Shown here piece by piece: positions 76 through 44,889 of a stretch of DNA of 64,000 nucleotides (position 1 is the first letter of the stretch; every line of letters begins with the position of its first letter). The stretch spans positions 11,858 to 75,857 of the forward strand of contig JBGSIC010000013.1 of NCBI GenBank assembly GCA_041751875.1. The letters run 5' to 3'. Source of the stretch: Bdellovibrionota bacterium (lineage in GTDB: Bacteria > Bdellovibrionota > FAC87 > UBA2466 > JACKAF01). Below the pieces are notes generated by a model. That model worked only from the letters and a program-made list of their open reading frames with translations, made no database searches and had not been told where the DNA came from. A program made the position numbers and the translations under genes.

Positions 76-615
76 ATGATTTTATCAGGCAACCGCATCC
101 GAGAGGCCCAGGCCGCCGGACACCTCAAAATCGACCCCTTCCATCCTGAGCGGGTCGGCCCCAATAGCTACAACCTGGCTTTGCACCACGAACTGGCGAC
201 CTACGAAGAGACCGTGCTGGACATGAAAAAGCCCCTCACGCTCAATCGTTTTTCCATTCCTGAAGAAGGATTTGAACTCGTTCCCCAAAGGCTTTATCTC
301 GGACGCACCATTGAGTACACGGAAAGCGAACGTTTTGTTCCGATGCTGGAAGGGCGATCTTCGATTGGGCGCCTAGGCCTAAGCGTGCATATCACGGCGG
401 GTTTTGGTGACGTAGGATTTAGAGGCTTCTGGACGCTTGAAATCTTCGCGCTCCAACCCGTGCGCGTTTATGCAGGAGTAGAGATCTGCCAGATTTTCTA
501 TCACGAGATTTCAGGTCCTTACGAAAAGTATTCCAGCGAGAAGTACCAAGACAATCGCGATATGCAACCGAGCATGATCCACCGCGACTTTCTTCGTAAT
601 CAACCCACTCTTTAA
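76..615 (+). CDS. dcd: dCTP deaminase
   Basis: 179 aa. The N-terminus MILSGNRIREA and overall length match the Dcd/dUTPase-fold family. Confidence 0.85.
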   Translation: MILSGNRIREAQAAGHLKIDPFHPERVGPNSYNLALHHELATYEETVLDMKKPLTLNRFSIPEEGFELVPQRLYLGRTIEYTESERFVPMLEGRSSIGRLGLSVHITAGFGDVGFRGFWTLEIFALQPVRVYAGVEICQIFYHEISGPYEKYSSEKYQDNRDMQPSMIHRDFLRNQPTL

Positions 616-1922
616 CGGCGCGCTTGGGCGAGTTTCACTAGCTGGTAAGCGTTGAGAATTCCCCAGCCATAGCGAATGTCCATCTTCTTTTCGCTGGATT
701 GTAGAAGAAGCTTCTTAGCGTCAGCGACGGTAAGCTTATGGTTGGCGTGTAACATCAAAGCTAGCGCACCCGCAACGTGCGGCGTTGCCATCGAGGTTCC
801 TGACCACGCGGCGTACTTATTACCGGGCAACGACGCTGTCACGTCGACTCCTGGGGCAGACAGATCCGGTTTAAAAACCGTAAGGATCCAAGACCCCACC
901 TTCCAAAGATTGGGTCCAACGCTGGAAAATGGCGCCAGATCACTTTTGCTATCAATGGCTCCGACGGAAATGGGTTCTGGCAAGCCACCAGGCATACCAT
1001 TCGGGGTCGTTCCGGAGTTACCGGCGGCAAACACAGGAATGATCCCCCCGTTGATCCAGGCCTGAATCGCGAGTCTAAACGGTGCGTAGTTTTCGATCGT
1101 ATTTACTCCGTTGGCTAGCGCTGCTCCCCACGAGTTGCTCACGATGTGCGGATAGTCCGCGGTCGAAGGGTCGCCGTCGGGATCAAAAGCCCATTGCATC
1201 CCACGAATTAACGTGGAATCCGCGCTCGTTCCGTTAGCGGTAAATACCTTCCCCACCAACAACGAAGCATTGGGGGCAATTCCTACGTTGGCCCCCGCAA
1301 TAGTGCCAGCGACATGTGTGCCGTGTCCGTGATCATCGAAAGAGTTTTTTAGCTTGGCTACGAAATCGCGGAAGGTCACTTTCACGTAGGAAACCTTTCC
1401 TTCCGGGCTCACGCGACGAAACTCGGGGTGACGACTCTGGATACCTGTATCGAGAATACCGACCCTGATGCCTGTTCCATCCAGCGCAGGAAATTCTGCC
1501 CGGATCTTGTCAACGCCAATACGCTGCAGGCCCCACGGCATTTGCGCAGGGGGATCTTCCGGTTCCGCAGGACCGGCCGGGATCACAAATTGCCGAACCT
1601 GATCGGCTAAAACATGTCCGACCCAAGGTTGTTTCTTAAGCGTTTCTGCGTCTGTCTTTTCGAGATCCAAGCGCGCCCCTCGAACTAACCAAAGGTCTTC
1701 CACATTTCCGCTAATCCGATGCGTCCCCATCCATTTCTCAAGCTCTTTGAGATCTTTTTGGTTCGTGCTTTTTAAAAGATTTTGGTAGCCCTCGTGTCCG
1801 AGCGAGGAAATTGCAATTTCATTTTGATGAAATAAAACGAGATAACTGTCAGCGGAAAACGCCGTATACGAAAAGAAAGCGAGAAAGGTGCCTCCCAGGC
1901 GAAGCCAAAAAGACCAGTTCAT
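612..1922 (-). CDS. Secreted subtilisin-like serine protease (peptidase S8)
   Basis: Catalytic motifs HGTHVAGTIAG (His) and GTSMATPHVAG (Ser) are present. An N-terminal signal-like hydrophobic segment is present. Confidence 0.85.
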   Translation of the reverse strand: MNWSFWLRLGGTFLAFFSYTAFSADSYLVLFHQNEIAISSLGHEGYQNLLKSTNQKDLKELEKWMGTHRISGNVEDLWLVRGARLDLEKTDAETLKKQPWVGHVLADQVRQFVIPAGPAEPEDPPAQMPWGLQRIGVDKIRAEFPALDGTGIRVGILDTGIQSRHPEFRRVSPEGKVSYVKVTFRDFVAKLKNSFDDHGHGTHVAGTIAGANVGIAPNASLLVGKVFTANGTSADSTLIRGMQWAFDPDGDPSTADYPHIVSNSWGAALANGVNTIENYAPFRLAIQAWINGGIIPVFAAGNSGTTPNGMPGGLPEPISVGAIDSKSDLAPFSSVGPNLWKVGSWILTVFKPDLSAPGVDVTASLPGNKYAAWSGTSMATPHVAGALALMLHANHKLTVADAKKLLLQSSEKKMDIRYGWGILNAYQLVKLAQARR

Positions 1923-2882: not shown

Positions 2883-3545
2883 CTAGCTAAAGAGAGTTGC
2901 GTAGAGATCCCAAGTTCCATCATAAATATCTCGGGCGCCCCCCAGCGCACCATCCTTCCATCCGCCTGATCGAAAAGCGATCGCCTCAAGGCCTGCACCA
3001 GCGGCTGACTCAATATCGTAGGGTGTGTCGCCAAGCATCACGACTTCCTTGGCCGGAAGTTTCATCCCTTTTAACGCAGAAATAACGATGTCAGGATCAG
3101 GTTTCGAGTTTTCTGCATCATCCGACGAGGTTTTGGTGGTAAAAAGGTCCGTCACTTCGGCGATATCCAACAAAGTTTTCAGATCCGCTTCAGAAGCAGA
3201 AGTAGCGATACCGAGCTCATAACCAATGTCTTTTAGCCTAAGCACCAGTGACCGCGTTTTTGGAAAAGGTTTCACTTGGCGCAGAAAGACTCGCTTAAAG
3301 ACCTCACCTTTCTTTTTATCGAGTTTTTCTATCTCGGCTTTCGAGACATCTCTACCCAAAGCGAGAGGGATCAACTTATCGCCTCCCATCCCTATTAAGG
3401 GGCGAATCGACTCGTAGGAAACCGCCTCATCAAAAATGCGGAAAGCCTCCACGAAGGCCAGTGCATGTTGATCATTGCTATCAACCAAAGTGCCGTCGAC
3501 ATCAAAAATCAACCCGCGGAAAGGTAGAGGAGAAAGTGGTTTCAT
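2883..3545 (-). CDS. HAD-superfamily hydrolase (phosphatase / beta-phosphoglucomutase-like)
   Basis: HAD motif I FDVDGTLVDS at the N-terminus. The C-terminal GDTPYD-type motif is present. About 220 aa. Confidence 0.7.
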   Translation of the reverse strand: MKPLSPLPFRGLIFDVDGTLVDSNDQHALAFVEAFRIFDEAVSYESIRPLIGMGGDKLIPLALGRDVSKAEIEKLDKKKGEVFKRVFLRQVKPFPKTRSLVLRLKDIGYELGIATSASEADLKTLLDIAEVTDLFTTKTSSDDAENSKPDPDIVISALKGMKLPAKEVVMLGDTPYDIESAAGAGLEAIAFRSGGWKDGALGGARDIYDGTWDLYATLFS

Positions 3546-3587: not shown

Positions 3588-4397
3588 CTAAAGCATGAGG
3601 TTGATGCTGAGCATATGCTCAAGTGGCGCACTCCCTTGATTGGGAATTTCCAACGCATAGTGGATCCCCATTCGCCCGCTATCCACGCCCACACCGGCTG
3701 ACCAGAAGGAAAGACTCTCATCGAGAAGCGCTCTAAAACCAACCCGCAACAGAAAGTTATAGGGAGAAAGATATTCAGCACCGACTCCAATTTGGTACGG
3801 GTTGAATCCTTCAAGTTTGGTGTTGGCAGCGACTGAGAGAAAAAGGGTCTGCTCATAGTTGATGCGCCCGCCCACTACGACTTCTCTATCCTGGTTCAAA
3901 TAGCCCGGACGCCCACCCAAAATGTTGCGGAAAAAGCCACCAAACTGGACAGTCGGAACGCTGTAGATCACTCCCACATCCAAATCTTTTAAATTTTGCT
4001 TCTGATTACTTTCGTCGGTGCCCCACAATAATTTACCCGCAACTCCCCAGCCGAGCGATTCGGTAATTCGCCCTAAAACGGAAATCTTCATCCCTTGATT
4101 CAGATTGTCCGTGCCTTTGACGGGAAAACGGTAATAACCAATTCCCCCTCCCAGGCTTGAGGTTTGCGTATCTAATATAGAGGCGGAGAACGCTCCCGAG
4201 CCGTAGTAAGAGCCCTCTATACTATAGAGTTCACTGAAGGCGGAACCTGCGGGATTGGAATACAGACTGTCGTTGTTGAGGTCAGCCCCTGCAAGCGATT
4301 GCCCCATTGCTTTCTCCGCGATGGGAACGATCTCAGCGGCACCAAAGGTCGTCCACCCGTAGAGTGCAGCAAAAAGAAAAAGTATTCCACGTTTCAT
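3588..4397 (-). CDS. Hypothetical outer-membrane beta-barrel protein
   Basis: Signal peptide MKRGILFLFAALYGWTTFGAA. The sequence shows alternating amphipathic Gly/aromatic-rich segments and ends in a C-terminal aromatic residue. The start was refined to the internal Met. Confidence 0.5.
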   Translation of the reverse strand: MKRGILFLFAALYGWTTFGAAEIVPIAEKAMGQSLAGADLNNDSLYSNPAGSAFSELYSIEGSYYGSGAFSASILDTQTSSLGGGIGYYRFPVKGTDNLNQGMKISVLGRITESLGWGVAGKLLWGTDESNQKQNLKDLDVGVIYSVPTVQFGGFFRNILGGRPGYLNQDREVVVGGRINYEQTLFLSVAANTKLEGFNPYQIGVGAEYLSPYNFLLRVGFRALLDESLSFWSAGVGVDSGRMGIHYALEIPNQGSAPLEHMLSINLML

Positions 4398-4692
4398 AGT
4401 TCTCGCTCCTGGAGACGCGCGCGTAGGGCCCATTTGTGACACCGCTCGTCTGTAACCATACTGTACAAGCTATACCCGCAAAAATAAAGGCGTTGTAGGC
4501 AGCCCGATTGCACTCAAAAGGAGTACAGCAAAATGGTCGCCTTCAGAATACGCGCGAGTCTTCAAACTTCGTGAGAGAACCGAAAGTGTATTCCGTGGCA
4601 CAGGGCTTGCTTTATTCGACCATGGAGTGAGGGCACAGTGTTTTGTTGTTGCGCCCCGGCCTCACAAAAAGCGCATTGCGGAGTGGATACCG

Positions 4693-5505
4693 ATGAAGTG
4701 GAAGCTTTGGATATTAAGTTTTAGTTTTTTAGCGGTGGCGAGCACGCCCGCTTTGGCCGAATATACGTACAATGGTTACAACCAGTACGACGCCTACTCG
4801 GGCGCCTACACACTGGGTGGAAATAGCCTGTACAACATCGCCGGACTCGGAGGGAATCTCTCCAACTACTACGGCAACAGTTACTCGCCCTACTCGTCTT
4901 CCTCGAGCTACCCTTACTCGTCAGGTTACGGCAGCTGTTCTTCTATTTACTACAGCAGCTGTGGCGCTTCGAACAATTTAGGCATGAGCGGTTACTATAA
5001 CCCTTACTCAATGGGTAGCTACGGTAACGGTTACAACATGTACGGTAGTTCTTACGGAAGCGGATACGGTTCGACCTATCCTTCCAGCTCGTACAACGGT
5101 TATTCGCCCTACACTTCTTCGTACTACGGTAGCAGCAACTACAATTCCTACTACTCGTACTACACGCCTGGAACGGGCTACGATTACTACTACATTCCTG
5201 GAAGCAGCTACTACAACAACCAGAGCTCTGGTTACGGCGGCTACAGCCCGTATGTTTCCAATTACAATTATTCTCCCGTCAATGTCACCATCAACTACAC
5301 AGGTGGCACGACCACCACGAGTTTAGGTGGTTGCAACGGGGTAACGATTCCTTGTGGAACCGATGTTATCGGAACGCCGACGATTACACCGATTCCTCCG
5401 GTGTTGGTGCCTCCGACGACGACGACGCCGTCGCAGAACACAATCCCGACCAACCCGAGTCGGACTCGCGTCCCGCGCGGTGCGGATGCCTTGGTCCACC
5501 GATAG
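4693..5505 (+). CDS. Secreted Tyr/Ser/Gly/Asn-rich low-complexity protein with a Thr/Pro-rich C-terminus
   Basis: Signal peptide MKWKLWILSFSFLAVASTPALA. It is followed by roughly 200 aa dominated by Y, S, G and N (SYY, GYG, SSY repeats), then a TTTT/PP-rich tail. The ATG start lies at 4693. Confidence 0.6.
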   Translation: MKWKLWILSFSFLAVASTPALAEYTYNGYNQYDAYSGAYTLGGNSLYNIAGLGGNLSNYYGNSYSPYSSSSSYPYSSGYGSCSSIYYSSCGASNNLGMSGYYNPYSMGSYGNGYNMYGSSYGSGYGSTYPSSSYNGYSPYTSSYYGSSNYNSYYSYYTPGTGYDYYYIPGSSYYNNQSSGYGGYSPYVSNYNYSPVNVTINYTGGTTTTSLGGCNGVTIPCGTDVIGTPTITPIPPVLVPPTTTTPSQNTIPTNPSRTRVPRGADALVHR

Positions 5506-5519
5506 CCAAAGCTTGATCG

Positions 5520-5563
5520 CAGATCGAGTCCCCGTACGAAAAGGGGAGAATCCACTCGATCTG
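5520..5563 (+). terminator. Extended stem-loop downstream of the Tyr-rich gene; possible terminator or RNA structural element
   Basis: CAGATCGAGT pairs with ACTCGATCTG as a 10-bp outer stem. An inner CCCC...GGGG hairpin sits inside it. No clear U-tract follows. Confidence 0.3.
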
Positions 5564-5795
5564 TTGTAGCGGTAAAGGGTGACTTTCTGAGGACTTGCCT
5601 CCTCCCCCTTATGTGGCCCCGAAACACATACTGTTCTTGGGAAGTCACCTTTACCTCCTCCCCCAAAAAACCAGTGCATAATCAGCCGTTTACAGCTCAG
5701 TGGGGGGTCTTTGATTGACTTTTTGTCCGGATTCGCTACAAATAACGATTCTGCTCAATCCTGAGCAGCCCAAGGTTCTTTTAGGAGTTCTAGAC

Positions 5796-6185
5796 ATGAA
5801 AAAGTCGGACCTGAATAAGTTCAAGAAGATGTTAGAGCTGAAACTGCATAGCTTGCAGCAGGACTTTGGCGTGGAAGTAAACCAGTCGCCTGGTGAATCA
5901 CTTGCTGATGTGAATGATCAGGCCAGTCTGGAAACGGAAAGAAGCTTTGGTCTGCGCATTCGCGACCGCGAGCGTAAACTTATTTCCAAGGTGCAGTCCG
6001 TTCTTCGCAAGATTGGGGACGGAACCTACGGTATCTGTGAATCGTGCGATGAACCCATCGGCATAAAGCGCCTCACGGCTCGTCCGGAAACCACCTATTG
6101 CATCAATTGCAAGGCGGAGATGGAAGAAGAAGAGCGCCGCGAAGAAATTAATCTCAAAAATACCCAAAGTGAGCAGCGCATCTAG
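5796..6185 (+). CDS. dksA: RNA polymerase-binding transcription factor DksA (C4 zinc finger)
   Basis: GTYGICESCDEPIGIKRLTARPETTYCINCK matches the DksA/TraR CxxC-x17-CxxC finger. A coiled-coil N-terminus is present. An AGGAG RBS lies 8 nt upstream of the ATG at 5796. Confidence 0.75.
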   Translation: MKKSDLNKFKKMLELKLHSLQQDFGVEVNQSPGESLADVNDQASLETERSFGLRIRDRERKLISKVQSVLRKIGDGTYGICESCDEPIGIKRLTARPETTYCINCKAEMEEEERREEINLKNTQSEQRI

Positions 6186-6382: not shown

Positions 6383-7564
6383 ATGTATTCTCGTCGTCGG
6401 CTAAATCAAAAAATCCAATCGTTTCAATCGAGTTTACCGTCGCTCCTGGCACAAGGCCTGCTCTTACTATGCCGCAGAGGAGCATACGTGTCCCAACGTT
6501 CATTCTTATCGTGGCTACTGCTTGCCTGTTTAGTGATAAACGGCTGCGCCCAGTACAATGTAAGCGGTCCGATCCGTATGCAGGTCTTCGCCCCTATTCA
6601 GGGCTCACACTGCGGATATCAAGCTCGCCCCCAGGTTCTGGAGACAGTAACGAACGTGCGCAACCTGCGCGGCTCTATCGGCCAGGTCGTCACCCACTCA
6701 GGCACTCTCACTGGGGAAGATATCACCAACGGCAACTACCGAGCTGTTCACACTCAGTTTTCACAGACGGGTAACACCTACTATCCGCTCGATTTAGGCT
6801 CTCTGTGGGCGGGAAGTTTTTACTACGCGCTAGAAACCGCCTACCGAATGTTTCGCGACCTCGAACCCACCATTTCCGATATGCGCATAGTCGCACTCGC
6901 CAACGGTGACCGCTTAGAAAATAGCCTTATTTTTCAAGAAGTAGAGATAGAAGACGGCGAAGACATTTTGGTCGATAACGCCGCTTTCGTTTATTTCGGC
7001 AACTCCGTAAACACCTTTATCAACGCTCCCATCCGAGAGCACTCTGATATCCCCATGGTTTTCAACATGGGCATCATGGTTCACGAGTATACGCACATGG
7101 TGATGAACTATCTCGTGAAAACCCCTCTCGCCAATTCGCTTTCGGAAGATTCTGTGGGCGATCGCGCTATTGGTGCGATGGACGAAGGGATTGCCGACTA
7201 CTTTGGTTTTCTCACAAACCGCGATCCGAAATACTTTCTGTGCACCGTTCCTGAGAGGACCTACCGGGATCTCTCGAAAGTGAAGTCTTACACCCAAGCG
7301 TATAAGGAAGCGATGCGAACCGGTTCCGGCTACCAAGCCCACTTGTTCGGCGCCTTCTTTGCCAGCGCACAATACTTCATGGGCGAACGCCTGAAGGATC
7401 ACCCTCGGCACGCAAAAACTTTAATTCAGCTAATGAAACGCCTGGGCTCAGGAAGTTGTGGTTCAGCCAACTCCTTGGACTACAGCGCAATCGCACGCTG
7501 TCACGAAGGCGTCACTGGCGCGCACTCAGAGATTAGTTACGTGTACCGGCAGTTAGGATTTTAA
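6383..7564 (+). CDS. Thermolysin-like (gluzincin, M4-like) secreted zinc metalloprotease
   Basis: HExxH motif (VHEYTHMV) with a downstream GAMDEGIADYFG resembling the thermolysin GAINEAISDIFG Glu-ligand segment. The N-terminal hydrophobic signal may be a lipoprotein signal. The exact start is uncertain; an in-frame GTG at 6488 is an alternative. Confidence 0.6.
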   Translation: MYSRRRLNQKIQSFQSSLPSLLAQGLLLLCRRGAYVSQRSFLSWLLLACLVINGCAQYNVSGPIRMQVFAPIQGSHCGYQARPQVLETVTNVRNLRGSIGQVVTHSGTLTGEDITNGNYRAVHTQFSQTGNTYYPLDLGSLWAGSFYYALETAYRMFRDLEPTISDMRIVALANGDRLENSLIFQEVEIEDGEDILVDNAAFVYFGNSVNTFINAPIREHSDIPMVFNMGIMVHEYTHMVMNYLVKTPLANSLSEDSVGDRAIGAMDEGIADYFGFLTNRDPKYFLCTVPERTYRDLSKVKSYTQAYKEAMRTGSGYQAHLFGAFFASAQYFMGERLKDHPRHAKTLIQLMKRLGSGSCGSANSLDYSAIARCHEGVTGAHSEISYVYRQLGF

Positions 7565-7565
7565 C

Positions 7566-8246
7566 GTGAAGTTTTGGATTTCCATTTTAGTCTTTATGTT
7601 GCTGCAAGCGGGCGGACCTGCGTTTGCAAAGTCCAAAAAGCGCCGCCTGCATATTCCTCTCATGTCTCAAAAGAAAATTTCTTACGTGGCACCGAAACGT
7701 TCCACGGCTCGTGCCTACTCGCGCGTTCAGAGCCGCTATCGTCACCAGCCGATCAAACGAGCGATGAGCTTGGCTGTTCAATTCGGCATCATCAGTCAGC
7801 GTTCTAGTTCGCCAGGATCTTTGCTGGGCATTAACGCCCACATGGGTCTCCGCTTTCTTCTAGCGATGCCCATCAGCCGCAATTTCACCTTGGAACCGGT
7901 GGCAGGTTATTATTTCGACCGTTCAAGCCTGGCCTCGGTATCGCTGACACATCACTGGCTTGAGACGGGCGCCAACGCCCTTTATATCATCCGCGCTTCG
8001 CACAAAACGCAGTACCGTTTAGGTGCGGCCGGGCGCTTTGATATGCGCTGGAATCGTGTGAGCGCACCGGAGAACTCTGACGGCAGTTCGCTTCAGATGG
8101 GAGTCAGAATGGGACCCACCGTAGGTCTTAGCACCATGCTCAATCGAAAGACGCAGCTCATCACCAACGCCGAAGTGACGTGGGACATCACCCGCGGGTG
8201 GAACATCCACCCAGCCCTCTATATCGGCCTCGCTTTTCCCTTATAG
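7566..8246 (+). CDS. Hypothetical outer-membrane protein
   Basis: Signal peptide MKFWISILVFMLLQAGGPAFA. The amphipathic beta-strand pattern ends in a C-terminal aromatic residue. Confidence 0.45.
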   Translation: MKFWISILVFMLLQAGGPAFAKSKKRRLHIPLMSQKKISYVAPKRSTARAYSRVQSRYRHQPIKRAMSLAVQFGIISQRSSSPGSLLGINAHMGLRFLLAMPISRNFTLEPVAGYYFDRSSLASVSLTHHWLETGANALYIIRASHKTQYRLGAAGRFDMRWNRVSAPENSDGSSLQMGVRMGPTVGLSTMLNRKTQLITNAEVTWDITRGWNIHPALYIGLAFPL

Positions 8247-10741: not shown

Positions 10742-11386
10742 ATGGATGATCCTCGCCTTCAACGCATCGCGCTTCTAGTGCCCATCTTCCTGCTGTCGCT
10801 TTGCATTCATGAATTCGCGCATGGATGGGTGGCGTATCTGCGCGGAGATGACACAGCGAAGCAATCTGGCAGGCTCACACTCAACCCCATCGCGCACGCG
10901 GATCTCTTCGGCACGCTGATCATTCCGCTATTCTGTCTCTACTATAATTTGTTTTTTATCGGGTGGGCAAAACCGGTACCCGTAGATCCCAGAAACATGA
11001 AGTACGGCATTAAAGATATGTCTCTAGTCGCCGCGGCCGGTCCTATTTCGAACATTTTAATAGCGCTTCTTGCGACCGGCGCTTTGGCGTTGAGTTTTCA
11101 TCTTCCCTTGAGTGTGGATACTTTGCGGTTGGTGCAATTGATCGGTGTGACGACCATTCAAATCAATCTTATGCTTGCCGTATTTAATTTAATCCCTTGC
11201 CCGCCGCTCGACGGCTTTCGGATTATCCAGGCTTTTTTGCCCTTAGGTTTCTTGATTCGTTTTCAGCGCATGGAGAATGCAATTGGCGTTGCGTTCATGC
11301 TACTGATTTATTTCCTACCGGGTGGTTTTCAGATCATTTCGGTTCCCGTGCAATACGCTTTTCGCACGATGATTTCTTGGATTTAG
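10742..11386 (+). CDS. Membrane zinc metalloprotease, site-2 protease (peptidase M50) family
   Basis: HEFAHG HExxH motif embedded in the first transmembrane segment. Multiple transmembrane helices. About 214 aa. Confidence 0.65.
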   Translation: MDDPRLQRIALLVPIFLLSLCIHEFAHGWVAYLRGDDTAKQSGRLTLNPIAHADLFGTLIIPLFCLYYNLFFIGWAKPVPVDPRNMKYGIKDMSLVAAAGPISNILIALLATGALALSFHLPLSVDTLRLVQLIGVTTIQINLMLAVFNLIPCPPLDGFRIIQAFLPLGFLIRFQRMENAIGVAFMLLIYFLPGGFQIISVPVQYAFRTMISWI

Positions 11387-11453
11387 AGATTGCTTCGTCC
11401 CGCCACGCTGCGCTCGCGGTCCTCGCAATGACATACTCAGTTCGTTAATCTCA

Positions 11454-16345: not shown

Positions 16346-17242
16346 CTAGTAAACCAACAGGGTGAGAATTTTTCCCCACACCCATTTCAAGAAGGAAAAG
16401 ATTTGCGGGATCGCAAAGCGATTGCTGCAGTCATAGCCCGAGAGAGCCTGCGAGCACTGGTCTAAGATACCCGTGTCGTAGAGTCGGTCGGTATCAGCGA
16501 GAAAATCAAAATTATCCCAGCGATTTAGATCAATATAATAGGAGAGAATGCGATCCGCGTTCCAGCTTCCCGCGTGCGCAACGCCGACAACTTGGAGCGC
16601 ACCTTCGTCCGTCTCCCTAAACATGGGCCCACCCGAATCACCGAAACACGATCCCGCGCGATTGAGGGGACCCAAAATACCCCGCGCAACCACACTTGTG
16701 CGAGGGGTGTGCAATTCCACGTAATCGGTTAAGCGATAAACCTGGTTTGTTCCCGTGCGTTTGAGTCCCGCCCCCGTACGGTGTTCAATTTCATTGCAGC
16801 CATAGCCCACCAACCGAATGTGTTCGAGTTCAGCAGGACGTGCCCCTAAAAAAGTCACACCTTCGGCAGGAACTTTGTCTTCATCGAAAATGAGCACAGC
16901 CAAATCATTGGGATCGTTGGCGACACCAGGACCAAAGCTTTCCACTTGGTAGGTACGAAAAATTCCGTACTGCGAGACCACCGTGTACTGACCGGCGGTA
17001 AGGGTGCAATGAGCCGCCGTGAGAACTGCCCGCGGGCTAACGAATGTGCCGGTGCACAATCCAAACCCGCCGGGAGAGACCACTTTTACAACGGAGGGAT
17101 AGTCGGTAGTCGTTTCAATCCCTTGATCGCTCGGAGCGTCGATGCGTTCAAGGTTATAAGCGGAAGGATCGGCGCAATGGGGAAGCAATAGCAAACAAGC
17201 TGCTCCCACAAGAAAACTCAACATTGAATCAGATCGACTCAC
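16346..17242 (-). CDS. Secreted trypsin-like serine protease (peptidase S1)
   Basis: LTAAHC (His) and GDSGGP (Ser) motifs. A signal peptide is present. Confidence 0.8.
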   Translation of the reverse strand: MSRSDSMLSFLVGAACLLLLPHCADPSAYNLERIDAPSDQGIETTTDYPSVVKVVSPGGFGLCTGTFVSPRAVLTAAHCTLTAGQYTVVSQYGIFRTYQVESFGPGVANDPNDLAVLIFDEDKVPAEGVTFLGARPAELEHIRLVGYGCNEIEHRTGAGLKRTGTNQVYRLTDYVELHTPRTSVVARGILGPLNRAGSCFGDSGGPMFRETDEGALQVVGVAHAGSWNADRILSYYIDLNRWDNFDFLADTDRLYDTGILDQCSQALSGYDCSNRFAIPQIFSFLKWVWGKILTLLVY

Positions 17243-19951: not shown

Positions 19952-20393
19952 CTAAAATAACAACGAAACTAATTCGGCGGTCCCCCGCGCACGGCGGAGA
20001 CCCTACCTGTCACTGATCGTGAAAAATCGCGTGAAACTTAAACCCCGCAGCAAAATTGTAGGCTTTGTGTTTTCAAGGACTTACCTCTCCCTTGATTGGC
20101 TCCTCTCCTTCATCACCGCATCTCAGGCTGAATAGGCACGGCGCTGACAGGCTGAACCAACAAATTGTGCGAAACTCTCCTCATTTCCAGCATTTGGCGC
20201 CTTCTCGGGGTTGCTAAAATAAGGAGTGTCGGGGATTTGGGCAGGCTTAGTATTTGAGAGGATTAGGGGATCCCAATCGTGAAAAAACGTACGGCCAAAC
20301 TTTAGCCAACTATCCAAGACATTTACGACTGTGTAATCGCGGCACACTCCTTGCTGATCAATGGGGTGAGATCCTTTTCTTATTGGAGTACGT

Positions 20394-22184
20394 ATGCGCA
20401 AATCCTTTCTGTATGCCACTATTGTGCTAGCCCTTCTATCGGGCTGTGCTCAAAACGGCTCGTTTGCTCAGCGCGACGAAGTCTCAGAATGGGATCAGAT
20501 CTTCGCTTTCTCTGGTGAAAATGCGACTGCGGCGGTTAATCCTCCGACCGACATCATTTTTCTTCTCGATAATAGCGGCTCGATGCAGGACGAAACACTT
20601 CGTCTCAGAAACGCGCTCACCGAACTGACAGGATCGCTGGCAAACGAACAACACGTCGACTACCGCGTTTACGGCCTTAACCTGTGGAGCATGTGGGCAA
20701 ACTCACAAGGCGTGATGGAAGTTCAGAGCTACAATTTCGACTCATACTCCGACCGAAATAGTTTTAGCGTGTTCAACACTTTTATTTCTGATGAAAGTTA
20801 TTTTTCTCCCTTCATGGATTCGTACACGATTGAGAACGGAATCGCGCTGGCGGGAGGTGCTCTCCAAACGCACTATTTCCTGAAACCTGACCTCTCACGA
20901 CAAACCAAAAATATTGAGTTTGTGATGATGAGCGACGAAGACAACGACTTTCAGAAATATGTACACCCGCTGACCGGCGAAGTTCAGTACGCGGCCTATC
21001 GAGATTATCTGATGTCGGGCCCGAATATTTACAACTATCGTATGGGTTATGATTCCGGCCGAACGACGCTCACTGTGGCAAACCGCTGTATTGCCTCCCC
21101 GAATACCTATAACGCCATTCCTGGAGATAACAGCGGACGCTACTACTGCCGTACCAGTTCAAACGAAGGTAGATTCACGAGCTATACTGCTACTCACATC
21201 GCGGATGTGCCAAACAGCTATTTGTGCATGGTCACTTCAGACAACCACACGCAAGAAATGGAACGCTGGAGCTGGGGTCCTGAATGTCGCATCAATCCGA
21301 ACGCAACCTATAATCGCCAACTCACATCGCATATCTACAACTCAACCACGAAGACTTATGCCATGGCCCCGGGTGTAAACAATGCAGTCCCGGTAACTTG
21401 CACTGAGCAACAATACATCCCGACCGTGTACCTAAACGGAAAAACCAACTGGAACTATTCGAACGTGCCCATCACTAGCATCACCACCGCTGCGTGCAAG
21501 TCCGGTTTTGCTACCGCCTACGCTCAGTATGGTGGATCAAACTATAGTGTTTTGCTTGATCCCAGCTTCGTTGCCCCGCAAGGAGTCACGGTTGCCCCCT
21601 CCGCTCGGATACAAAATAATTTTTCATCCACTGAATATTATGCCACTGACGAGGAACTCATAGCGGCGTATCAGCTCATGGTTCCCAGCGCAAAAAACAT
21701 TACGGTAGAAAGCCGTCCGGAATCTGAAGGGGCAGAAACCTCACTCTACCTTTCCAATCCGCAAGACTTTAAACGCATGTTGAAAGAAAGATTTCCTCAT
21801 CTCAACGTCGCGTTTAATGCGATCGTTGCGCAGAAAGACGGTGCTTGCCGTGAGGGCGATCAGTCAAACAACGTGGAAGGTAAACGTTATAAGCTGATGG
21901 CTGAAATGACCAAAGGATTTGTCGGTGATATTTGCGACCTCGACTTTAAACCCCTCATGAAAAAATTGGCCAGAAACGTTTTATTTAACAGTCGTCCCCA
22001 ATATCCTTTAAAGGGCTACGCCAACCCGCACGCCGTTCTTGAGGTCATCGACCAGGATACGGGAGATCCCCTAACTAAAGACGTTCACTATGAAATCACA
22101 CCCGATCGCTTGCACATCCGATTTGTGGAAGGTGCGGTTGATTTATCACACAAGTTCAAAATCAATCAGATCCGGCCCAACTAA
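20394..22184 (+). CDS. Lipoprotein with N-terminal vWA-like MIDAS motif, paralog A
   Basis: Lipobox LLSGC. DIIFLLDNSGSMQDE is a DxSxS MIDAS motif. Cys-rich, 596 aa. About 60% identical to the downstream gene. Confidence 0.7.
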   Translation: MRKSFLYATIVLALLSGCAQNGSFAQRDEVSEWDQIFAFSGENATAAVNPPTDIIFLLDNSGSMQDETLRLRNALTELTGSLANEQHVDYRVYGLNLWSMWANSQGVMEVQSYNFDSYSDRNSFSVFNTFISDESYFSPFMDSYTIENGIALAGGALQTHYFLKPDLSRQTKNIEFVMMSDEDNDFQKYVHPLTGEVQYAAYRDYLMSGPNIYNYRMGYDSGRTTLTVANRCIASPNTYNAIPGDNSGRYYCRTSSNEGRFTSYTATHIADVPNSYLCMVTSDNHTQEMERWSWGPECRINPNATYNRQLTSHIYNSTTKTYAMAPGVNNAVPVTCTEQQYIPTVYLNGKTNWNYSNVPITSITTAACKSGFATAYAQYGGSNYSVLLDPSFVAPQGVTVAPSARIQNNFSSTEYYATDEELIAAYQLMVPSAKNITVESRPESEGAETSLYLSNPQDFKRMLKERFPHLNVAFNAIVAQKDGACREGDQSNNVEGKRYKLMAEMTKGFVGDICDLDFKPLMKKLARNVLFNSRPQYPLKGYANPHAVLEVIDQDTGDPLTKDVHYEITPDRLHIRFVEGAVDLSHKFKINQIRPN

Positions 22185-22206: not shown

Positions 22207-23955
22207 ATGCGCAAACACATCTTCTGTGCTCTGATTCTCGTTCTTCTATCCGCCTGTTCCCAAGCTGGTTTTTTCGCCCACCGCGACGATGTGTCGGAAT
22301 GGTCACAACCTTTTAGCTTCGCGGGAGACGGTGCGGCCGTCGCTATCAACCCTGCCACTGATATTATTTTCCTGTTGGACAACAGCGGTTCCATGCAAGA
22401 CGAAGTCGGAAGGTTGAGATCTGCTCTAACCGAATTGCAAGGATCTTTGGCCAACGAAAAACACGTGGACTACCGCGTCTACGGATTAAACTTTTGGAAC
22501 ATGTGGGCAACTAATGGGGTAATGGATGTCTCCTTTGATGGAGGTTACTCAGATCGAAACAGTTTTGCGCCCTTTGAAACCTTCCTAAATTCGGACTCCT
22601 TCGGATTTCATCCTCATATGGATTCGTACACAATCCACAATGGAATCGCTCTCGCGGGAGGAGCCCTTCGGGAACAATACCACCTTAATCCTGATGTCAC
22701 ACGGGTCACCAAAAACGTGGAGTTCGTTATGGTTAGCGACGAGGACAACGACCTTCAGAAATATGTTCACCCGCTCACCGGCGAGGTTGCCTACGAGAAC
22801 TATCGCGACTATCTGATGGTGGGACCGAATACATACAACTACCGAGTGAACTACGAAACGGGAAAAACTCGCTTGAATGTTTCCAATCGCTGCCTTGTTT
22901 CTCCCAATACTTACAACGCTGCGGCGGGAGAAAACTACCACCGCTACTACTGCAAAGCGAGTGGCGAAGAAGGCCAATTCTCGTATTCCACCTTCACCCA
23001 TATTGCCGATGTTCCGAGTAGCTATTTATGCATGATGACTTCTGATAATCACACGCAAGAGGTAGTGAGCTGGCAATATAGTACCGGCTGCCGCCTTAAT
23101 CCGAATGCCACTTATAGCCGCCGTCTCACAACTCAACCCACAGTGCCCGGCGTTACAAACGCTGTCCCCGTAACCTGCAGGGAACAATGGTACCAACCAA
23201 TCGTTATTTTTAACGGAAACGCCAACTACAATTACACCTCTCCCGTTTCCAGCATGACCATAGCTGCCTGCCGCTCGGGCTTCGCACCCACCACTGTGCA
23301 GAACAGCAACTCTAACTATCACGTCGATTTAGCGCCCTCTTTCGTTGCACCTAATGGCGTTACTGTCGGGCCTGCACCGCGGACTTCAACGAACTTCAAC
23401 TCGCAAGAGTTTTTCGCCACCGATGACGAAGTCATCGCCGCATATCGGGCTATAAACCCGAGCGCCCTTAACATTGCTGTCGAAAGCAGGCCCGAAACGG
23501 GACTTGTTCAAGAGAAACAGTACTATTCAACTCCGCAAGGTTTTGGCGCCATGCTGAGAGAAAAGTTTCCTCACTTAAAAGTGGCTTTCAACGCAATTAT
23601 AGCCAAAAAAGACGGGGCTTGCGTTGAAGGCGAACAAACCAACAACGTCGAGGGAAAACGTTACAAACTCGTTGCAGAAATGACCAAGGGTTTTATCGGT
23701 GATATCTGCGACGTCGACTTTAAGCCACTCATGAAAAAACTGGCAAGCAACGTGCTTTTTAATAGCCGCCCTCAATACGCCTTAGCCAGATTTGCTAACC
23801 CTGATGCGATTCTTGAAGTAGTCGATCTCAATCTCGACGAAAAATTGTTTGAAGGTGAGCACTACGAAATCACACCTGACCGACTGCATATTCGTTTTAT
23901 TGAAGGTGCTGTGGACATTACGCACAGATTCATGATCACGCAGATCCGTAAGTAA
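22207..23955 (+). CDS. Lipoprotein with N-terminal vWA-like MIDAS motif, paralog B
   Basis: Lipobox LLSAC and the same DIIFLLDNSGSMQDE motif. The identical RBS/start context TTGGAGTACNTATGCGCAAA is shared with paralog A. ATG at 22207, so the track ORF start is over-extended. Confidence 0.7.
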   Translation: MRKHIFCALILVLLSACSQAGFFAHRDDVSEWSQPFSFAGDGAAVAINPATDIIFLLDNSGSMQDEVGRLRSALTELQGSLANEKHVDYRVYGLNFWNMWATNGVMDVSFDGGYSDRNSFAPFETFLNSDSFGFHPHMDSYTIHNGIALAGGALREQYHLNPDVTRVTKNVEFVMVSDEDNDLQKYVHPLTGEVAYENYRDYLMVGPNTYNYRVNYETGKTRLNVSNRCLVSPNTYNAAAGENYHRYYCKASGEEGQFSYSTFTHIADVPSSYLCMMTSDNHTQEVVSWQYSTGCRLNPNATYSRRLTTQPTVPGVTNAVPVTCREQWYQPIVIFNGNANYNYTSPVSSMTIAACRSGFAPTTVQNSNSNYHVDLAPSFVAPNGVTVGPAPRTSTNFNSQEFFATDDEVIAAYRAINPSALNIAVESRPETGLVQEKQYYSTPQGFGAMLREKFPHLKVAFNAIIAKKDGACVEGEQTNNVEGKRYKLVAEMTKGFIGDICDVDFKPLMKKLASNVLFNSRPQYALARFANPDAILEVVDLNLDEKLFEGEHYEITPDRLHIRFIEGAVDITHRFMITQIRK

Positions 23956-25123: not shown

Positions 25124-26191
25124 ATGCCGATACGCCACTTTTGCTTTGGGGTTCTGATCACGCTTGTCCTGGGATTTGGTATCTCTGCACGGGGGGAAAT
25201 CAACGGAACCGGTTTACAAATTGCCGCGACCGCTGACTTTGCCGGTGGCTTCGGCCTAACGCAGAACTCGGGCGGACCGGGTCGCTTTCAAATATTTCGC
25301 GAGGGAGAGATCATGGCGTTCTCCCCCGCGGACTATCTTTTTGATGGCCGACTGACTATCGCTGCCGAAAACGATGGCGGCATTATTGAGCTCGTTCTGC
25401 ACGAAGCGATTCTCAGCTCAAGCCGACTCATTCCACGGTCCCGCTTTCGACTTGGTCAGTTTTTCTTGAATGTCGGCAGGATCAATTCCCTACACCGACA
25501 TGATTGGCCGTTTACCAGTACCCCCAAAGCTCACGGCGAAATTTTTGAAGTGGGCGACATGGAGGGGGTGTCAGATTTGGGATTTGAATATAGCTATCTC
25601 CTTCCCATTCCGTTCTACCTGGATCTTACTCTCGGCGTCACTTCGGGGTGGACCTTCGGGCACGTCCATGGGACCGCGGGGGATCCGCCACAAGTTCCGA
25701 CTCACTACGGCCGGCTCATGACCTATTTTGATTTGCCGGGTGGGGGAGGCGCACAGGTCGGTACCAGTTACCTTGGTCGCAAGGACTTCTTCGGAACACC
25801 GACCTCCATCTTTGGAGTGGATGCGGTTCTTAAGTGGAGAGAAAATCAACGCATCGTCTGGCTTCTGCAAAGCGAGCTCTGGTACCGAAAGAAGTCGACC
25901 GTGGGAGTCACTGCGAGTGAGTCGTTCGGCGGCTATCTTTTTGCCCAGTACGGCTTAACCCAACGCGCTTACGCGGGAGTGCGTTTGGACTATTACAAGC
26001 AGCTCCTTAGCAAGGACTACACTTTAGGTGTGCTCCCGCAATTCACCTATCAACCCAGCGAGTTTACTACTTTCCGGGCGAGTTATAGAGTGGAAATGGA
26101 TTTTTCGAACGCGGTCTTCGACCGCACGAAACACTTCGTGGAACTGCAAGCTGTCTTTATATTAGGGAGTCACCCCGCGCATGAATTCTAA
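25124..26191 (+). CDS. Hypothetical outer-membrane protein
   Basis: A signal peptide is present. The segments are Gly/aromatic-rich and amphipathic. It sits in an operon-like arrangement between the His-rich lipoprotein and the metal ABC transporter. Confidence 0.45.
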   Translation: MPIRHFCFGVLITLVLGFGISARGEINGTGLQIAATADFAGGFGLTQNSGGPGRFQIFREGEIMAFSPADYLFDGRLTIAAENDGGIIELVLHEAILSSSRLIPRSRFRLGQFFLNVGRINSLHRHDWPFTSTPKAHGEIFEVGDMEGVSDLGFEYSYLLPIPFYLDLTLGVTSGWTFGHVHGTAGDPPQVPTHYGRLMTYFDLPGGGGAQVGTSYLGRKDFFGTPTSIFGVDAVLKWRENQRIVWLLQSELWYRKKSTVGVTASESFGGYLFAQYGLTQRAYAGVRLDYYKQLLSKDYTLGVLPQFTYQPSEFTTFRASYRVEMDFSNAVFDRTKHFVELQAVFILGSHPAHEF

Positions 26192-27107
26192 GTTTATTTT
26201 CCTTCTTCTCGTTCTCAGTTTTTCCCCGGCATGGGCCAAAGTGAGTGTTGTCACTACAACGACTGATCTCGCCTGGGCCGCACGACACGTAGGTGGAGAA
26301 TGGGTGGAAGTTCGCTCACTACTCACGGGAAAAGAGAACCCGCACTATCTCGACGCGTCTCCGCGTTTCATCCGCCAAGTTGCTGACGCGGACGTACTTT
26401 TTCTCATAGGCTTTGACCTGGAAGTCGGGTGGCTTCCCAAAGTTCTGGAGCGCTCGGGAAACGCGAAGGTGCAACGGGGTGGAGTCGGTTTCGGTGAAAC
26501 GGGAAGAGTGATCACCCCGCTCCAACGACCGGCCGTTGTGGTGGATAGGTCGATGGGAGATGTTCACGCCCTGGGAAATCCCCACTACTGGTTGAGCCCG
26601 ACCGCCTTTGGAGAAGTCGTGGCGTACATTGGGGAAACCCTGGGCCGCATCGATCCCGAACACGCCGCTGGGTACTTGGCTAACGCCACCAAGCTCAAGG
26701 AAAGTTTGGACGCACTTGTTAAAAGGAATCTGCCCAAACTCGCCCCATGGAAAGGCAAAGCACCGCTCGTGATCGAGTACCACCAAGAATTTATCTACCT
26801 CTTTAATCAGTATGGTGTGTTGTCTCTGGGAAGCATTGAGGAGAAACCCGGCGTGTTGCCTTCCGCAGGAAGGTTGGCGCGCATCGGGGCCACCGCAAAA
26901 AGCGCAGGGATAAAAGTCGCTTTCACCGCGCCCTATAACCCGCAGGATGTACTCGCCAAGTTTCACGAACTATCGGGCGTACCTGTCTTTACGGTACCGA
27001 CGTCTGTTCAATCCAGTGGGCCCTATTCCGACTACGAGGCTTTGCACCAACACATGGTAGATTCTCTGGTGAACTATCTCAGTGGAACCTCGAAAGGAAA
27101 CTCCTGA
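26181..27107 (+). CDS. znuA: Metal (Zn/Mn) ABC transporter substrate-binding protein, ZnuA/TroA family
   Basis: Signal peptide. Cluster A-I SBP-like sequence with HYLD/HYW metal-ligand regions. Followed by the cognate ATPase and permease. Confidence 0.7.
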   Translation: MNSKFIFLLLVLSFSPAWAKVSVVTTTTDLAWAARHVGGEWVEVRSLLTGKENPHYLDASPRFIRQVADADVLFLIGFDLEVGWLPKVLERSGNAKVQRGGVGFGETGRVITPLQRPAVVVDRSMGDVHALGNPHYWLSPTAFGEVVAYIGETLGRIDPEHAAGYLANATKLKESLDALVKRNLPKLAPWKGKAPLVIEYHQEFIYLFNQYGVLSLGSIEEKPGVLPSAGRLARIGATAKSAGIKVAFTAPYNPQDVLAKFHELSGVPVFTVPTSVQSSGPYSDYEALHQHMVDSLVNYLSGTSKGNS

Positions 27108-27109
27108 TT

Positions 27110-27712
27110 GTGGGTGCACCACTTCTCGAAGTACGCTCGTTAAGTTACGGCCATTTCGCTCACAAGCCCCTCGGTCGCAATCTTTCTTTTACGCTTGAGA
27201 ACGATTCGATCCTCTATATCGAAGGGCCAAACGGGTCGGGAAAATCTTCCCTACTCCGCGTCCTATTGGGACAACGCGCGCCCTTGGGCGGAACGGTTTT
27301 TTGGGGAATTGAAAAGAAACGAATTAGCTATATCCCGCAGCTGCAAAACACGGACTTCCATTTGCCGGTGACACTCGCAGACCTGCTGCGCGTTTCTTAC
27401 CCAGGTCACTGGGAAAATTCCAAAGCCCTCAAGTGGGGTCTTTTATCCGAAACTCAGTTGGATCTCGCATGGAACTCAGCCAGTGGCGGCGAGAGAAAGC
27501 GCACGCTTCTGACACGCGCGCTGTTAAACGATAGCGCCGTATTAGTGCTTGATGAACCGATGAACCACCTGGACCAAGAAAGTCGCCAATTGATTCAGTC
27601 TGCGCTTCAAAACTGCTCCGCCTCCATGATCGTCGTGAGCCACGACGAGCAAGAGACATTGCAATCCAAGAAGAAGGTGCAACGCCTCTTGTTGGGAGAA
27701 AATCATGAGTAG
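27110..27712 (+). CDS. znuC: Metal ABC transporter ATP-binding protein (ZnuC-like)
   Basis: Walker A GPNGSGKSSL, signature-like SGGERKR and Walker B VLVLDEP. Short at 200 aa. Confidence 0.7.
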   Translation: MGAPLLEVRSLSYGHFAHKPLGRNLSFTLENDSILYIEGPNGSGKSSLLRVLLGQRAPLGGTVFWGIEKKRISYIPQLQNTDFHLPVTLADLLRVSYPGHWENSKALKWGLLSETQLDLAWNSASGGERKRTLLTRALLNDSAVLVLDEPMNHLDQESRQLIQSALQNCSASMIVVSHDEQETLQSKKKVQRLLLGENHE

Positions 27713-28538
27713 TTTACTTGCGATCTACGCCTTACCGCTTGCCGCGGGTTCCTGTTTTGCAGTGGGCTTGTCGATCCTGGGAGGCCACTTAGCGGCGCGA
27801 GACAAAGCCATGCAAACGCTTTGCATTGGTCAAGCCGCCACGCTGGGTATTTTGTTCGGTATCGGGCTGATTCACGGTGTGATGGAAACGGAAAGTTCCC
27901 TGCATTACAGTCCTGTCGTGATCGGTTTTCTTTTTTCCCTAATGGCTTACTCTTTCGGGGAATGGACGGTACGCAAGGTTACCACCTCCCGAAATTCCTA
28001 CTTCGCTGCGATTTTTGTTTCCTTACTTGCCGCGACATCGCTCTTGAGTGTCGTATTGCCGGGCTTGGAAAATCATCTTTCTCAGGTTTTCTTTGGGGAT
28101 CTTGCGACTCTTTCTGACCGCGATAGCTTGGTTATGCTCGTGGCTTCTCTTCTGACTTTGGCGTTTCTGTTAATTTTTGCAAAAAAGTTTACCAACGGCT
28201 CGTTTGAAACCGCTATTTTTGGATACGAATCAGGAGGAGCGCGCGGATTTAACCTGTTTGCGCTTTTTGTGATTGCGCTCTCGGTTCAGTTTCTCGGATT
28301 TCTCTTTACTGCGTCCTGTCTATTTCTTCCGACAACCCTACTACGGGAAGGAACAGGCAAGGAACTCAATCGGCATTTTATCACGTGTGCGCTAATAGCT
28401 GGATCTAGTGCGGCTCTTGGGTTTTTGTTGTCATTGAATTGGGAGCGCTTACCCACGGTTCCCGTGATTGTCGCTGTGATGATAGTCTTGGGATCCCTGA
28501 GCGCATTTGTAGGAAAACGCGTCTACCGTCAAACTTAA
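27705..28538 (+). CDS. znuB: Metal ABC transporter permease (ZnuB-like)
   Basis: About 8 transmembrane helices. Overlaps the ATPase gene by 8 nt, which suggests translational coupling. Confidence 0.65.
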   Translation: MSSLLAIYALPLAAGSCFAVGLSILGGHLAARDKAMQTLCIGQAATLGILFGIGLIHGVMETESSLHYSPVVIGFLFSLMAYSFGEWTVRKVTTSRNSYFAAIFVSLLAATSLLSVVLPGLENHLSQVFFGDLATLSDRDSLVMLVASLLTLAFLLIFAKKFTNGSFETAIFGYESGGARGFNLFALFVIALSVQFLGFLFTASCLFLPTTLLREGTGKELNRHFITCALIAGSSAALGFLLSLNWERLPTVPVIVAVMIVLGSLSAFVGKRVYRQT

Positions 28539-33273: not shown

Positions 33274-33290
33274 GCCGGTAGGAAAAAGTT

Positions 33291-44888: not shown

Positions 44889-44889
44889 T

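Follow-up and report, generated by a model that had tools for sequence, protein, structure and literature searches.

A conserved, exported low-complexity protein of Bdellovibrionota encoded next to a PorV/PorQ-like outer-membrane barrel gene

An intact reading frame of 270 codons, found at 4693-5505 (+) in a 64,000-nucleotide stretch of contig JBGSIC010000013.1 from a Bdellovibrionota bacterium (the whole stretch is called the window below), encodes a protein built largely of Tyr, Ser, Gly and Asn. Is such a low-complexity (LC) frame a genuine gene, and if so, what could its product do? A previous, sequence-only reading had described an exported, FUS-like protein with a Thr/Pro tail, and had noted that lack of conservation, or pseudogene status, would speak against it. 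Our results strongly support that the gene is real, that the product is exported and that it belongs to a family defined by short conserved modules around a hypervariable, aromatic-rich, disordered core. They also add features beyond the scope of that reading, namely conserved terminal motifs and Cys loops, a sigma-54 promoter, and an obligate pairing with a gene for a PorV/PorQ-like barrel. The features of the locus are collected in Table 1.

Table 1. Features of the LC locus and its surroundings, in window coordinates
Feature	Position	Strand	Basis
Coding sequence, 270-aa exported LC protein	4693..5505 (stop codon included)	+	open reading frame, orthologue alignment, dN/dS 0.065
Predicted Sec signal peptide (signal peptidase I), residues 1-22, cleavage between ALA and EY	4693..4758	+	sequence; sole helix in AlphaFold2 model
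Tyr/Ser/Gly/Asn low-complexity core, hypervariable between orthologues	4759..5265	+	composition; AlphaFold2 pLDDT 22-33
Conserved N-terminal motif, residues 35-53 (YSGAYTLGGNSLYNIAGLG)	4795..4851	+	alignment of 10 orthologues
First Cys pair C82…C90, putative disulfide loop	4936..4962	+	C82 at least 90% conserved
Amphipathic strand-like motif NYSPVNVTINY, residues 192-202	5266..5298	+	Y193, N197 invariant
GGC-x6-C loop (GGCNGVTIPCG), residues 212-222	5326..5358	+	C214, C221 invariant, 10/10 sequences
Thr/Pro/Val-rich extended tail	5359..5454	+	sequence, alignment
C-terminal motif P-x-R-x-x-[IV]-P-R-[GAST]-x(1-5)-H (PSRTRVPRGADALVHR)	5455..5502	+	orthologue alignment
Shine-Dalgarno GGAG	4680..4683	+	read from sequence; 9 nt ahead of ATG 4693
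Putative sigma-54 (-24/-12) promoter TGGCACAGGGCTTGCT	4596..4611	+	exact consensus match
Conserved intergenic cis element TGTACAAGCTATACCCGCAAAAATAAAGGC	4461..4491	.	kept in all loci, unique in 64-kb window
Divergent partner, predicted 269-aa 14-strand outer-membrane beta-barrel	3588..4397	-	AlphaFold2, Foldseek, NCBIfam
dksA-family gene, conserved downstream neighbour	5796..6185	+	Pfam DksA_N + zf-dskA_traR; all loci
Second sigma-54-like site TGGCACAAGGCCTGCT, before HExxH lipoprotein gene	6447..6462	+	equivalent sites in L008, L009
Thermolysin-like HExxH lipoprotein, conserved neighbour	6488..7564	+	HEYTH motif, lipobox

The mature chain of 248 residues contains 19.0% Tyr, 18.1% Ser, 14.5% Gly, 9.7% Asn, 9.7% Thr and 8.1% Pro, as compared with 2.7% Tyr, 6.8% Ser, 7.2% Gly and 3.1% Asn in the Pfam-supported genes of the window; by combined Tyr, Ser, Gly and Asn content, no other frame of the window comes near it. 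These four residues make up 73% of positions 23-222 (Tyr alone about 24%), and the last 48 residues are rich in Thr (23%), Pro (21%) and Val. There are 4 Lys or Arg, 5 Asp or Glu, and four Cys, at positions 82, 90, 214 and 221. With Gln at 1%, the label "prion-like" in the Gln/Asn sense is not supported. The bias does not arise from DNA repeats or slippage, because Tandem Repeats Finder (TRF) detected no tandem repeats in the gene, the direct repeats are limited to three short, two-copy ones, and Ser is encoded by all six of its codons.

An alternative, longer start at GTG 4627 is unlikely, because the orthologues begin at a conserved MKWK, GGAG precedes ATG 4693 by 9 nt, and, with the sigma-54 promoter at 4596-4611, a transcript would have no leader ahead of the GTG. 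On the 3' side, a hairpin beyond the stop codon (5519-5564) made no convincing terminator, being no more stable than its shuffled versions (z -1.18) and lacking a T-run.

The N-terminus, MKWKLWILSFSFLAVASTPALA followed by EY, is laid out as MKWK, then LWILSFSFLAVAS, then TPALA ahead of the EY. Having n-, h- and c-regions and an A-x-A cleavage site, and lacking a lipobox Cys, it would be a substrate of Sec and signal peptidase I (SPase I), and an A-x-A site followed by Glu is kept in most orthologues. The two conserved Cys pairs, together with such a signal peptide, would fit an oxidising, extracytoplasmic location. Signal peptide and composition thus bear out the earlier description of an exported Tyr/Ser/Gly/Asn protein with a Thr/Pro tail. 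PEP-CTERM, MYXO-CTERM and LPXTG-type sorting signals were considered and dropped, as there was no C-terminal transmembrane segment and no model match.

In homology searches the protein looked like an orphan. Pfam and NCBIfam had no match for it, and a word-indexed search of 5.8 billion clusters returned only the protein itself when queried with its sequence, and only the protein plus one relative, P0002, when queried with a two-sequence profile. Exhaustive phmmer comparison with 1.84 billion representatives again gave P0002 as the one true homologue (250 aa, E 5e-20, 49% identical from end to end), i.e., just two clusters including the query; a third match, the Cys/Arg/Phe-rich repeat protein P0003, was discarded as spurious. 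P0002 comes from a metagenome-assembled genome (MAG) labelled Bdellovibrionota bacterium, where its gene occupies a syntenic locus (L003) with the order S8 peptidase … barrel gene (-) / LC gene (+), dksA, HExxH protein, 236-aa protein, HU, lgt, priA. Neighbouring proteins are 25-76% identical between the window and L003, and the 49% of the LC protein falls within this ordinary range.

We relied on position, taking the divergently oriented barrel gene as the synteny handle. Scanning genome contigs with a single barrel sequence gave nothing, whereas an alignment-based scan succeeded, and the contigs of eight diverse barrel-family members were added to the loci so obtained; metagenome contig scans with a barrel profile or an LC profile gave no matches. 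The resulting 11 loci derive from Bdellovibrionota-type MAGs and metagenomes, the relatives being labelled as Bdellovibrionota, Bdellovibrionales or Bdellovibrionaceae, and they amount to about nine independent lineages because L005 is identical to L007 and L016 to L017.

In all 11, the gene between the divergent barrel gene and dksA encodes a protein of 219-303 aa (249 aa in the close relative L005/L007) with the same architecture, and these positional orthologues are mostly not linked to the query by HMMER. After the signal peptide come the motif G-x-Y-x-x-G-G-x-x-L-Y-x-[FL]-G, the first Cys pair and the low-complexity core, followed by (I/V)N(I/V)N, GGC-x6-C, the Pro/Thr/Val tail and the C-terminal motif. 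Within the N-terminal motif, G42 and G43 are invariant and G37, Y39 and L46 are at least 90% conserved among 10 orthologues; one or two motifs comparable to (I/V)N(I/V)N occur in every orthologue; and at the C-terminus P255, R257, P261 and R262 are invariant, with H269 reaching at least 90% conservation. We considered a furin-like RxxR processing site within this last motif but dropped it, since only about half of the orthologues have Arg at P4.

Between these landmarks the core drifts widely. Tyr reaches 19-24% in the window lineage, L003, L007 and L008 (a Tyr/Ser/Gly/Asn core in the window lineage, and up to 24% Tyr in L008) and 13-17% in L010, L015 and L018, the first two of these with Gly/Tyr/Ser cores and the third with 25% Ser, 17% Tyr and 17% Gly. 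The L009 core is instead dominated by Leu, Ser, Gly and Trp, and those of L011, L013 and L016 by Pro and Asn with NPF/NPY repeats (17-21% Pro); L013 and L016 have 8-9% Tyr, and L011, with 10 Tyr only, has less. What stays constant is an aromatic content of 12-25%, very few charges and almost no aliphatic hydrophobics: Lys plus Arg number 2-4 in each member, L013 excepted (11 in the frame as called, whose start codon was later revised), and Asp plus Glu 5-13.

Between L003 and L007 the ratio of nonsynonymous to synonymous substitution rates (dN/dS) of the LC gene was 0.065 (dN 0.043, dS 0.66); the barrel gene gave 0.026 and the 236-aa gene 0.081. Purifying selection on the LC gene is thus clear. 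With position and architecture kept in every related locus, the objection of missing conservation fails, as does, given this ratio, the suspicion of a pseudogene. The Arg-rich frames 5295-5666(-), 5323-5679(-) and 5354-5569(+), which overlap the ACG/CCG-rich tail of the gene, are artefacts, as had been proposed for the antisense ones, because the conserved and selected frame is the sense frame. Nor could the protein be assigned to a known family: when ten members were compared with Pfam and NCBIfam, no family matched, one compositional Pro-repeat hit excepted. The Bdellovibrio literature that we searched for tyrosine-rich, low-complexity or PorV proteins contained nothing relevant, and the family appears to be undescribed in the libraries and literature covered.

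An AlphaFold2 model of the protein had no secondary structure besides the signal-peptide helix and a mean predicted local distance difference test score (pLDDT) of 29.6, on an alignment of two sequences; this fits an intrinsically disordered chain. As to the likeness to FUS-type domains noted earlier, Ser, Tyr and Gly are high but Gln is 1%, and only 8 [GS]Y[GS] motifs occur in the 248 residues (13 in L010). The LC protein and those domains share an uncharged, Ser/Tyr/Gly-rich sequence with [GS]Y[GS] motifs that is predicted to be unstructured, and L018 is strikingly FUS-like. Unlike the FUS-family Ser/Tyr/Gly/Gln domains, however, the LC protein is bacterial, is exported by a signal peptide, lacks RNA-binding modules, has about 10% Asn and roughly double the Tyr density of FUS, and carries putative disulfide loops and a Pro/Thr tail. 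The resemblance is compositional only and involves no homology.

How is the gene expressed? The exact sigma-54 consensus (TGGCAC-N5-TTGCW, with GG at -24, GC at -12 and exact spacing) occurs twice in the window, as compared with 0.11 matches expected; the match at 4596-4611 lies upstream of the LC gene and points toward it, and TGGCA[CT]-N5-TTGCT is found 60-132 nt before the LC start codon in 11 of the 11 loci, within flanks that have diverged. A relaxed pattern gave 17 matches in about 190 kb, both strands included, plus one in L018, where some 1.5 would be expected by chance; 11 of these 18 precede the LC gene, and three, one each from the window, L008 and L009, precede the gene of the HExxH lipoprotein, which is possibly in the same regulon. 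That the LC gene lies behind a conserved sigma-54 promoter is, on these sequence grounds, strongly supported, and transcription would start from it. Such a promoter needs an ATP-dependent activator, and LC expression would therefore be conditional rather than constitutive. Bdellovibrio bacteriovorus reportedly encodes an RpoN-like sigma factor, bd0843 (PMC3464611); neither an rpoN gene nor one for a bacterial enhancer-binding protein (bEBP) lies within the 64-kb window.

A second conserved element of about 30 nt, T(T/G)TACA…AAAAATAAAGGC, is kept nearly base for base 80-118 nt upstream of the -24 box. We found AAAAATAAAGGC-type elements in the window and in L003, L007-L011, L013, L015, L016 and L018. 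The element matches no known consensus; it could be a candidate upstream activating sequence (UAS), for which the distance is right, or else the promoter or operator of the barrel gene. A sigma-28 promoter at this place was dropped because the -10-like part is not conserved in the orthologues. Rfam had no match in the whole window.

Further sigma-54-like sites occur elsewhere in the window. One, at 20340-20355, lies upstream of a lipoprotein gene (20394-22184), one at 29010-29025(-) upstream of the gene for a 146-aa secreted protein (28543-28983), and one at 35301-35316(-) upstream of the gene for a 279-aa protein resembling outer-membrane proteins (34416-35255); a fourth, at 35543-35558, precedes a frame at 35597-36382 without an obvious signal peptide. 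Taken together, the sigma-54-like sites of the window suggest a putative sigma-54 envelope regulon.

The gene that adjoins the LC gene in 11 of the 11 loci belongs to a family of at least 86 members (36-57% identity), all unnamed and without Pfam domains. AlphaFold2, with 86 sequences, modelled it with confidence (pLDDT 91.7, predicted TM-score 0.84) as 14 strands preceded by a conserved N-terminal segment of about 35 residues with short helices, and the family consensus ends in Leu-Phe, as is typical of outer-membrane proteins. When the model was compared with the PDB by Foldseek, the first two ranks went to 8gl6_F (query TM-score, TMq, 0.73, E 2e-9) and 6h3i_F (TMq 0.71, E 1.4e-8), followed by FadL, TodX and CymD (TMq 0.63-0.69), then OmpG (about 0.5), with FapF weaker (TMq 0.44). 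Entry 6H3I is a "PorV complex" of the T9SS (type IX secretion system), in which PorV is the Type A substrate carrier (PMC10994853); from size, barrel fold and entry description, we infer that chain F is PorV in both entries. A sequence search of the PDB with the barrel profile gave nothing relevant.

Profile matches pointed in the same direction. The NCBIfam PorV/PorQ model (NF033709) matched the window barrel over its C-terminal 73 residues only, with 35.2 bits (E 1e-8) against a cut-off of 90 bits; the same model matched 49 of the 86 relatives at E<=1e-3, the window protein being the best, and the PorP/SprF model matched 11 of 86, every match to either model falling short of its curated cut-off. 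On structural and profile modelling, the barrel is probably a distantly related, sub-threshold relative of PorV, PorQ and PorP.

Combining these observations, we tentatively favour, while holding it somewhat short of probable, a composite model in which the LC protein, disordered, exported and made in response to a signal, docks to the PorV/PorQ-like barrel and forms an adhesive or cohesive layer of the envelope. A sigma-54 promoter and its ATP-dependent activator would switch the gene on conditionally, Sec would export the product and SPase I would remove the signal peptide. The conserved termini could then dock to the partner barrel, in parallel with the PorV/PorQ/PorP-type barrels of T9SS, which serve soluble partners as carriers or anchors on the cell surface, and the Tyr-rich core, acting as a "sticker-spacer" chain, might make the envelope or cell surface adhesive in a multivalent, non-specific way, or let the protein associate with itself there, e.g., in attachment to prey or substrata or in a cohesive coat. 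Processing of the LC protein could fall to the neighbouring HExxH lipoprotein, itself linked to sigma-54, or to the S8 protease.

Adhesives offer an analogy for the last step. Mussel foot proteins and the 57-aa loop of Vibrio cholerae Bap1 are likewise rich in Tyr, Gly, Ser and Asn, disordered and extracellular, and non-specific adhesion to surfaces is plausible by this analogy with aromatic-rich adhesives. However, they pair their aromatics with many Lys and Arg, whereas the LC protein has 4 among 248 residues, and there is no DOPA-forming enzyme near the LC gene.

Several points weigh against the composite model. The genes lgt, HU, priA and dksA are syntenic as well, and the adjacency of LC and barrel genes could reflect a conserved core-genome block, not a functional pair. 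The barrel falls below every curated cut-off for PorV, PorQ and PorP, and a T9SS-type C-terminal domain (CTD) is absent, by Pfam and NCBIfam, from the LC protein and 9 orthologues. The two-sequence alignment behind the AlphaFold2 model weakens what that model says of disorder. Moreover, no route across the outer membrane was identified, and therefore the LC protein may stay in the periplasm. Finally, the mode of anchoring may differ between lineages. The orthologues of L011 (4053-4712), L016 (3857-4693) and L018 (2810-3688) have a Cys just beyond the hydrophobic stretch of their signal peptides (…SGASAC, …ITFGC and …SYATC, respectively), and by these signals may be lipoproteins rather than SPase I substrates.

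The missing route leads to the best surviving alternative, namely a disordered protein of the periplasm or associated with the inner leaflet, serving as spacer, gel, chaperone-like filler, or plug or regulator of a FadL/PorV-like channel. We regard this as a serious possibility, albeit on balance an unlikely one. A Sec signal peptide is present, no signal or system for secretion across the outer membrane could be identified, the Cys pairs would suit the periplasm equally well, and FadL-family barrels are otherwise small-molecule channels; yet an extended Pro/Thr stalk and an adhesive, aromatic composition are typical of surface-displayed proteins, and the nearest structural relative of the barrel is the T9SS carrier PorV, not a FadL transporter.

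The sequence-only reading had also proposed a substrate for oxidative Tyr cross-linking, i.e., a dityrosine-linked matrix or coat protein whose Tyr residues are coupled into an insoluble layer. The Tyr content of the window lineage, L003, L007 and L008, and of L010, L015 and L018, agrees with this idea, as does the extracytoplasmic location. Bacillus CotC/CotU/CotG, plant glycine-rich wall proteins and resilin are likewise low-complexity, extracytoplasmic and rich in Tyr and Gly/Ser. But the Tyr bias is not conserved in the family (the Pro/Asn-rich cores of L011, L013 and L016 and the Leu/Ser/Gly-rich one of L009 depart from it), there is no sequence relationship to those proteins, and the Bacillus coat examples are rich in Lys and Asp whereas the LC protein is nearly uncharged. 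Nor does any tyrosinase, laccase or haem peroxidase occur as a conserved neighbour across the loci, where only AhpC/TSA-type redoxins recur. Cross-linking is thus an improbable explanation of the family.

Weaker still is the case for the amyloid-like coat component that had been suggested, here meaning a subunit of a functional amyloid or a fibre for which the neighbouring barrel would serve as secretion channel or nucleation site, as in curli or Fap, and we consider it very improbable. Segments rich in Asn, Ser, Gly and Tyr do resemble steric-zipper peptides or low-complexity aromatic-rich kinked segments (LARKS), the orthologues retain the short, strand-like (I/V)N(I/V)N motifs, and FapF is among the weaker fold matches of the barrel. 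As with curli (CsgA/CsgG) and Fap (FapC/FapF), an exported Gly/Ser/Asn-rich protein is encoded beside an outer-membrane protein, and a conserved segment directly follows the signal peptide, as does N22 in CsgA. Against this, TRF found no imperfect repeats, and the AlphaFold2 model has neither strands nor a beta-solenoid; the core sequence is not conserved, and Pro at 17-21%, as in some orthologues, is incompatible with an amyloid core; the Pfam annotation of the window neighbours includes no csg or fap genes, and the barrel resembles PorV/FadL rather than CsgG, and FapF weakly.

That the frame is non-functional, a pseudogene or an assembly artefact, as might be suspected from the single homologue detectable by sequence and from the break of an independent assembly inside the gene, has practically no chance of being right and is effectively refuted by conservation, given a 3' end identical in that assembly and an intact frame, motifs, promoter and ribosome-binding site maintained in 11 loci under purifying selection. 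The break itself is of some interest. In the independent short-read assembly of the same strain (Logan SRR28170465; L001/L002), where the strain is present as short contigs, contig L002 has its first base within the LC gene, at window 5384. Such low-complexity genes therefore break assemblies up, and protein catalogues will contain too few of them.

The comparison with T9SS deserves a closer look. In favour of a likeness are the 14-strand FadL-type barrel with PorV as best structural match, the weak PorV/PorQ and PorP/SprF profile matches, and the adjacent gene, whose exported product has a conserved signature at its C-terminus; PorP/SprF-like genes of Flavobacterium likewise sit beside the genes of their cognate cargo. 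On the other hand, the barrel is about 100 residues shorter than its T9SS counterparts, and instead of an Ig-like CTD of some 80-100 aa the LC protein ends in a motif of about 15 residues after the Pro/Thr tail. CTD models of the TIGR04183/TIGR04131 type matched neither the LC protein nor its 9 orthologues, and the T9SS core genes (SprA/Sov, GldK-N/PorK-N) are absent from the 64-kb window. The host lineage is moreover Bdellovibrionota, while T9SS is described as Bacteroidota-specific (PMC7463736). With no CTD and a phylum that does not fit, we rejected the LC protein as T9SS cargo; its likeness to such cargo, to curli or Fap subunits and to FUS-type domains is in each case limited to a single respect. 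A T9SS-independent module of Bdellovibrionota-type bacteria, in which a PorV-like barrel as carrier or anchor displays the FUS-like, Tyr-rich, disordered protein as its cargo on the cell surface, in a sigma-54-switched, adhesive or condensate-like coat used, e.g., to attach to prey or surfaces, seems to us rather unlikely.

Among the other neighbours, the HExxH lipoprotein has homologues in L003, L007, L008, L009, L013 and L016. At window 6488-8246 this lipoprotein (HEYTH…DEGIADYF) is followed by a probable small outer-membrane protein of 226 aa; neither has a Pfam family, and the pair is a conserved neighbour of LC and dksA in the same six loci. A secreted S8 subtilase (612-1922(-)) and a trypsin-like protease (16346-17242(-)) are encoded near the LC gene, the S8 neighbour being kept in L003, L008 and L016. 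Judging from its sequence, the invariant C-terminal …[IV]-P-R followed by G of the LC protein would suit an Arg-specific protease. Directly after the barrel gene, a DUF1207 gene is present in L003, L009-L011, L013, L015 and L016; at that position the window has no DUF1207 gene, and a gene for a haloacid dehalogenase (HAD) hydrolase (2883-3545) follows the barrel gene. In L003 (MAG GCA_041391485.1), dksA is split into two overlapping frames at 11036-11436 by a frameshift, which marks either an assembly error or a pseudogene.

Farther away, tandem paralogous lipoproteins of about 580-596 aa (20394-22184 and approximately 22207-23955) show an N-terminal motif resembling the von Willebrand factor A (vWA) domain and its metal-ion-dependent adhesion site (MIDAS) (IIFLLDNSGSMQDE), with no Pfam match. 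Large genes similar to polyketide synthases (PKS) or polyunsaturated fatty acid (PUFA) synthases (ketosynthase; acyltransferase, ketoreductase and dehydratase) lie at 51364-57071, a pst-phoU-phoRB-phoX phosphate cluster at 40902-48987, znuABC at 26181-28538 and class I ribonucleotide reductase at 30868-34289. All of these last genes are ordinary chromosomal context.

Irrespective of the actual function, our results show that a gene which looks like an orphan to HMMER can still be conserved, under selection and regulated, and can belong to a module that spans a lineage and comes to light through synteny alone. Exported low-complexity proteins of FUS-like composition are essentially undescribed in Gram-negative bacteria, and the clean sigma-54 promoter offers a direct handle on the inducing signal. 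If the pairing with the barrel is functional, the carrier or anchor logic of T9SS barrels would extend outside Bacteroidota, and the pairing would provide a tractable bacterial system for the role of aromatic-rich disordered proteins beyond the cytoplasm, whether as adhesives, as a cohesive coat or as a permeability layer, perhaps as part of a predatory lifestyle. Should the display module itself prove true, bacteria would be using the sticker-spacer physics of low-complexity proteins outside the cell, and the module would be linked in evolution to the PorV/PorQ/PorP barrels of the Bacteroidota T9SS.

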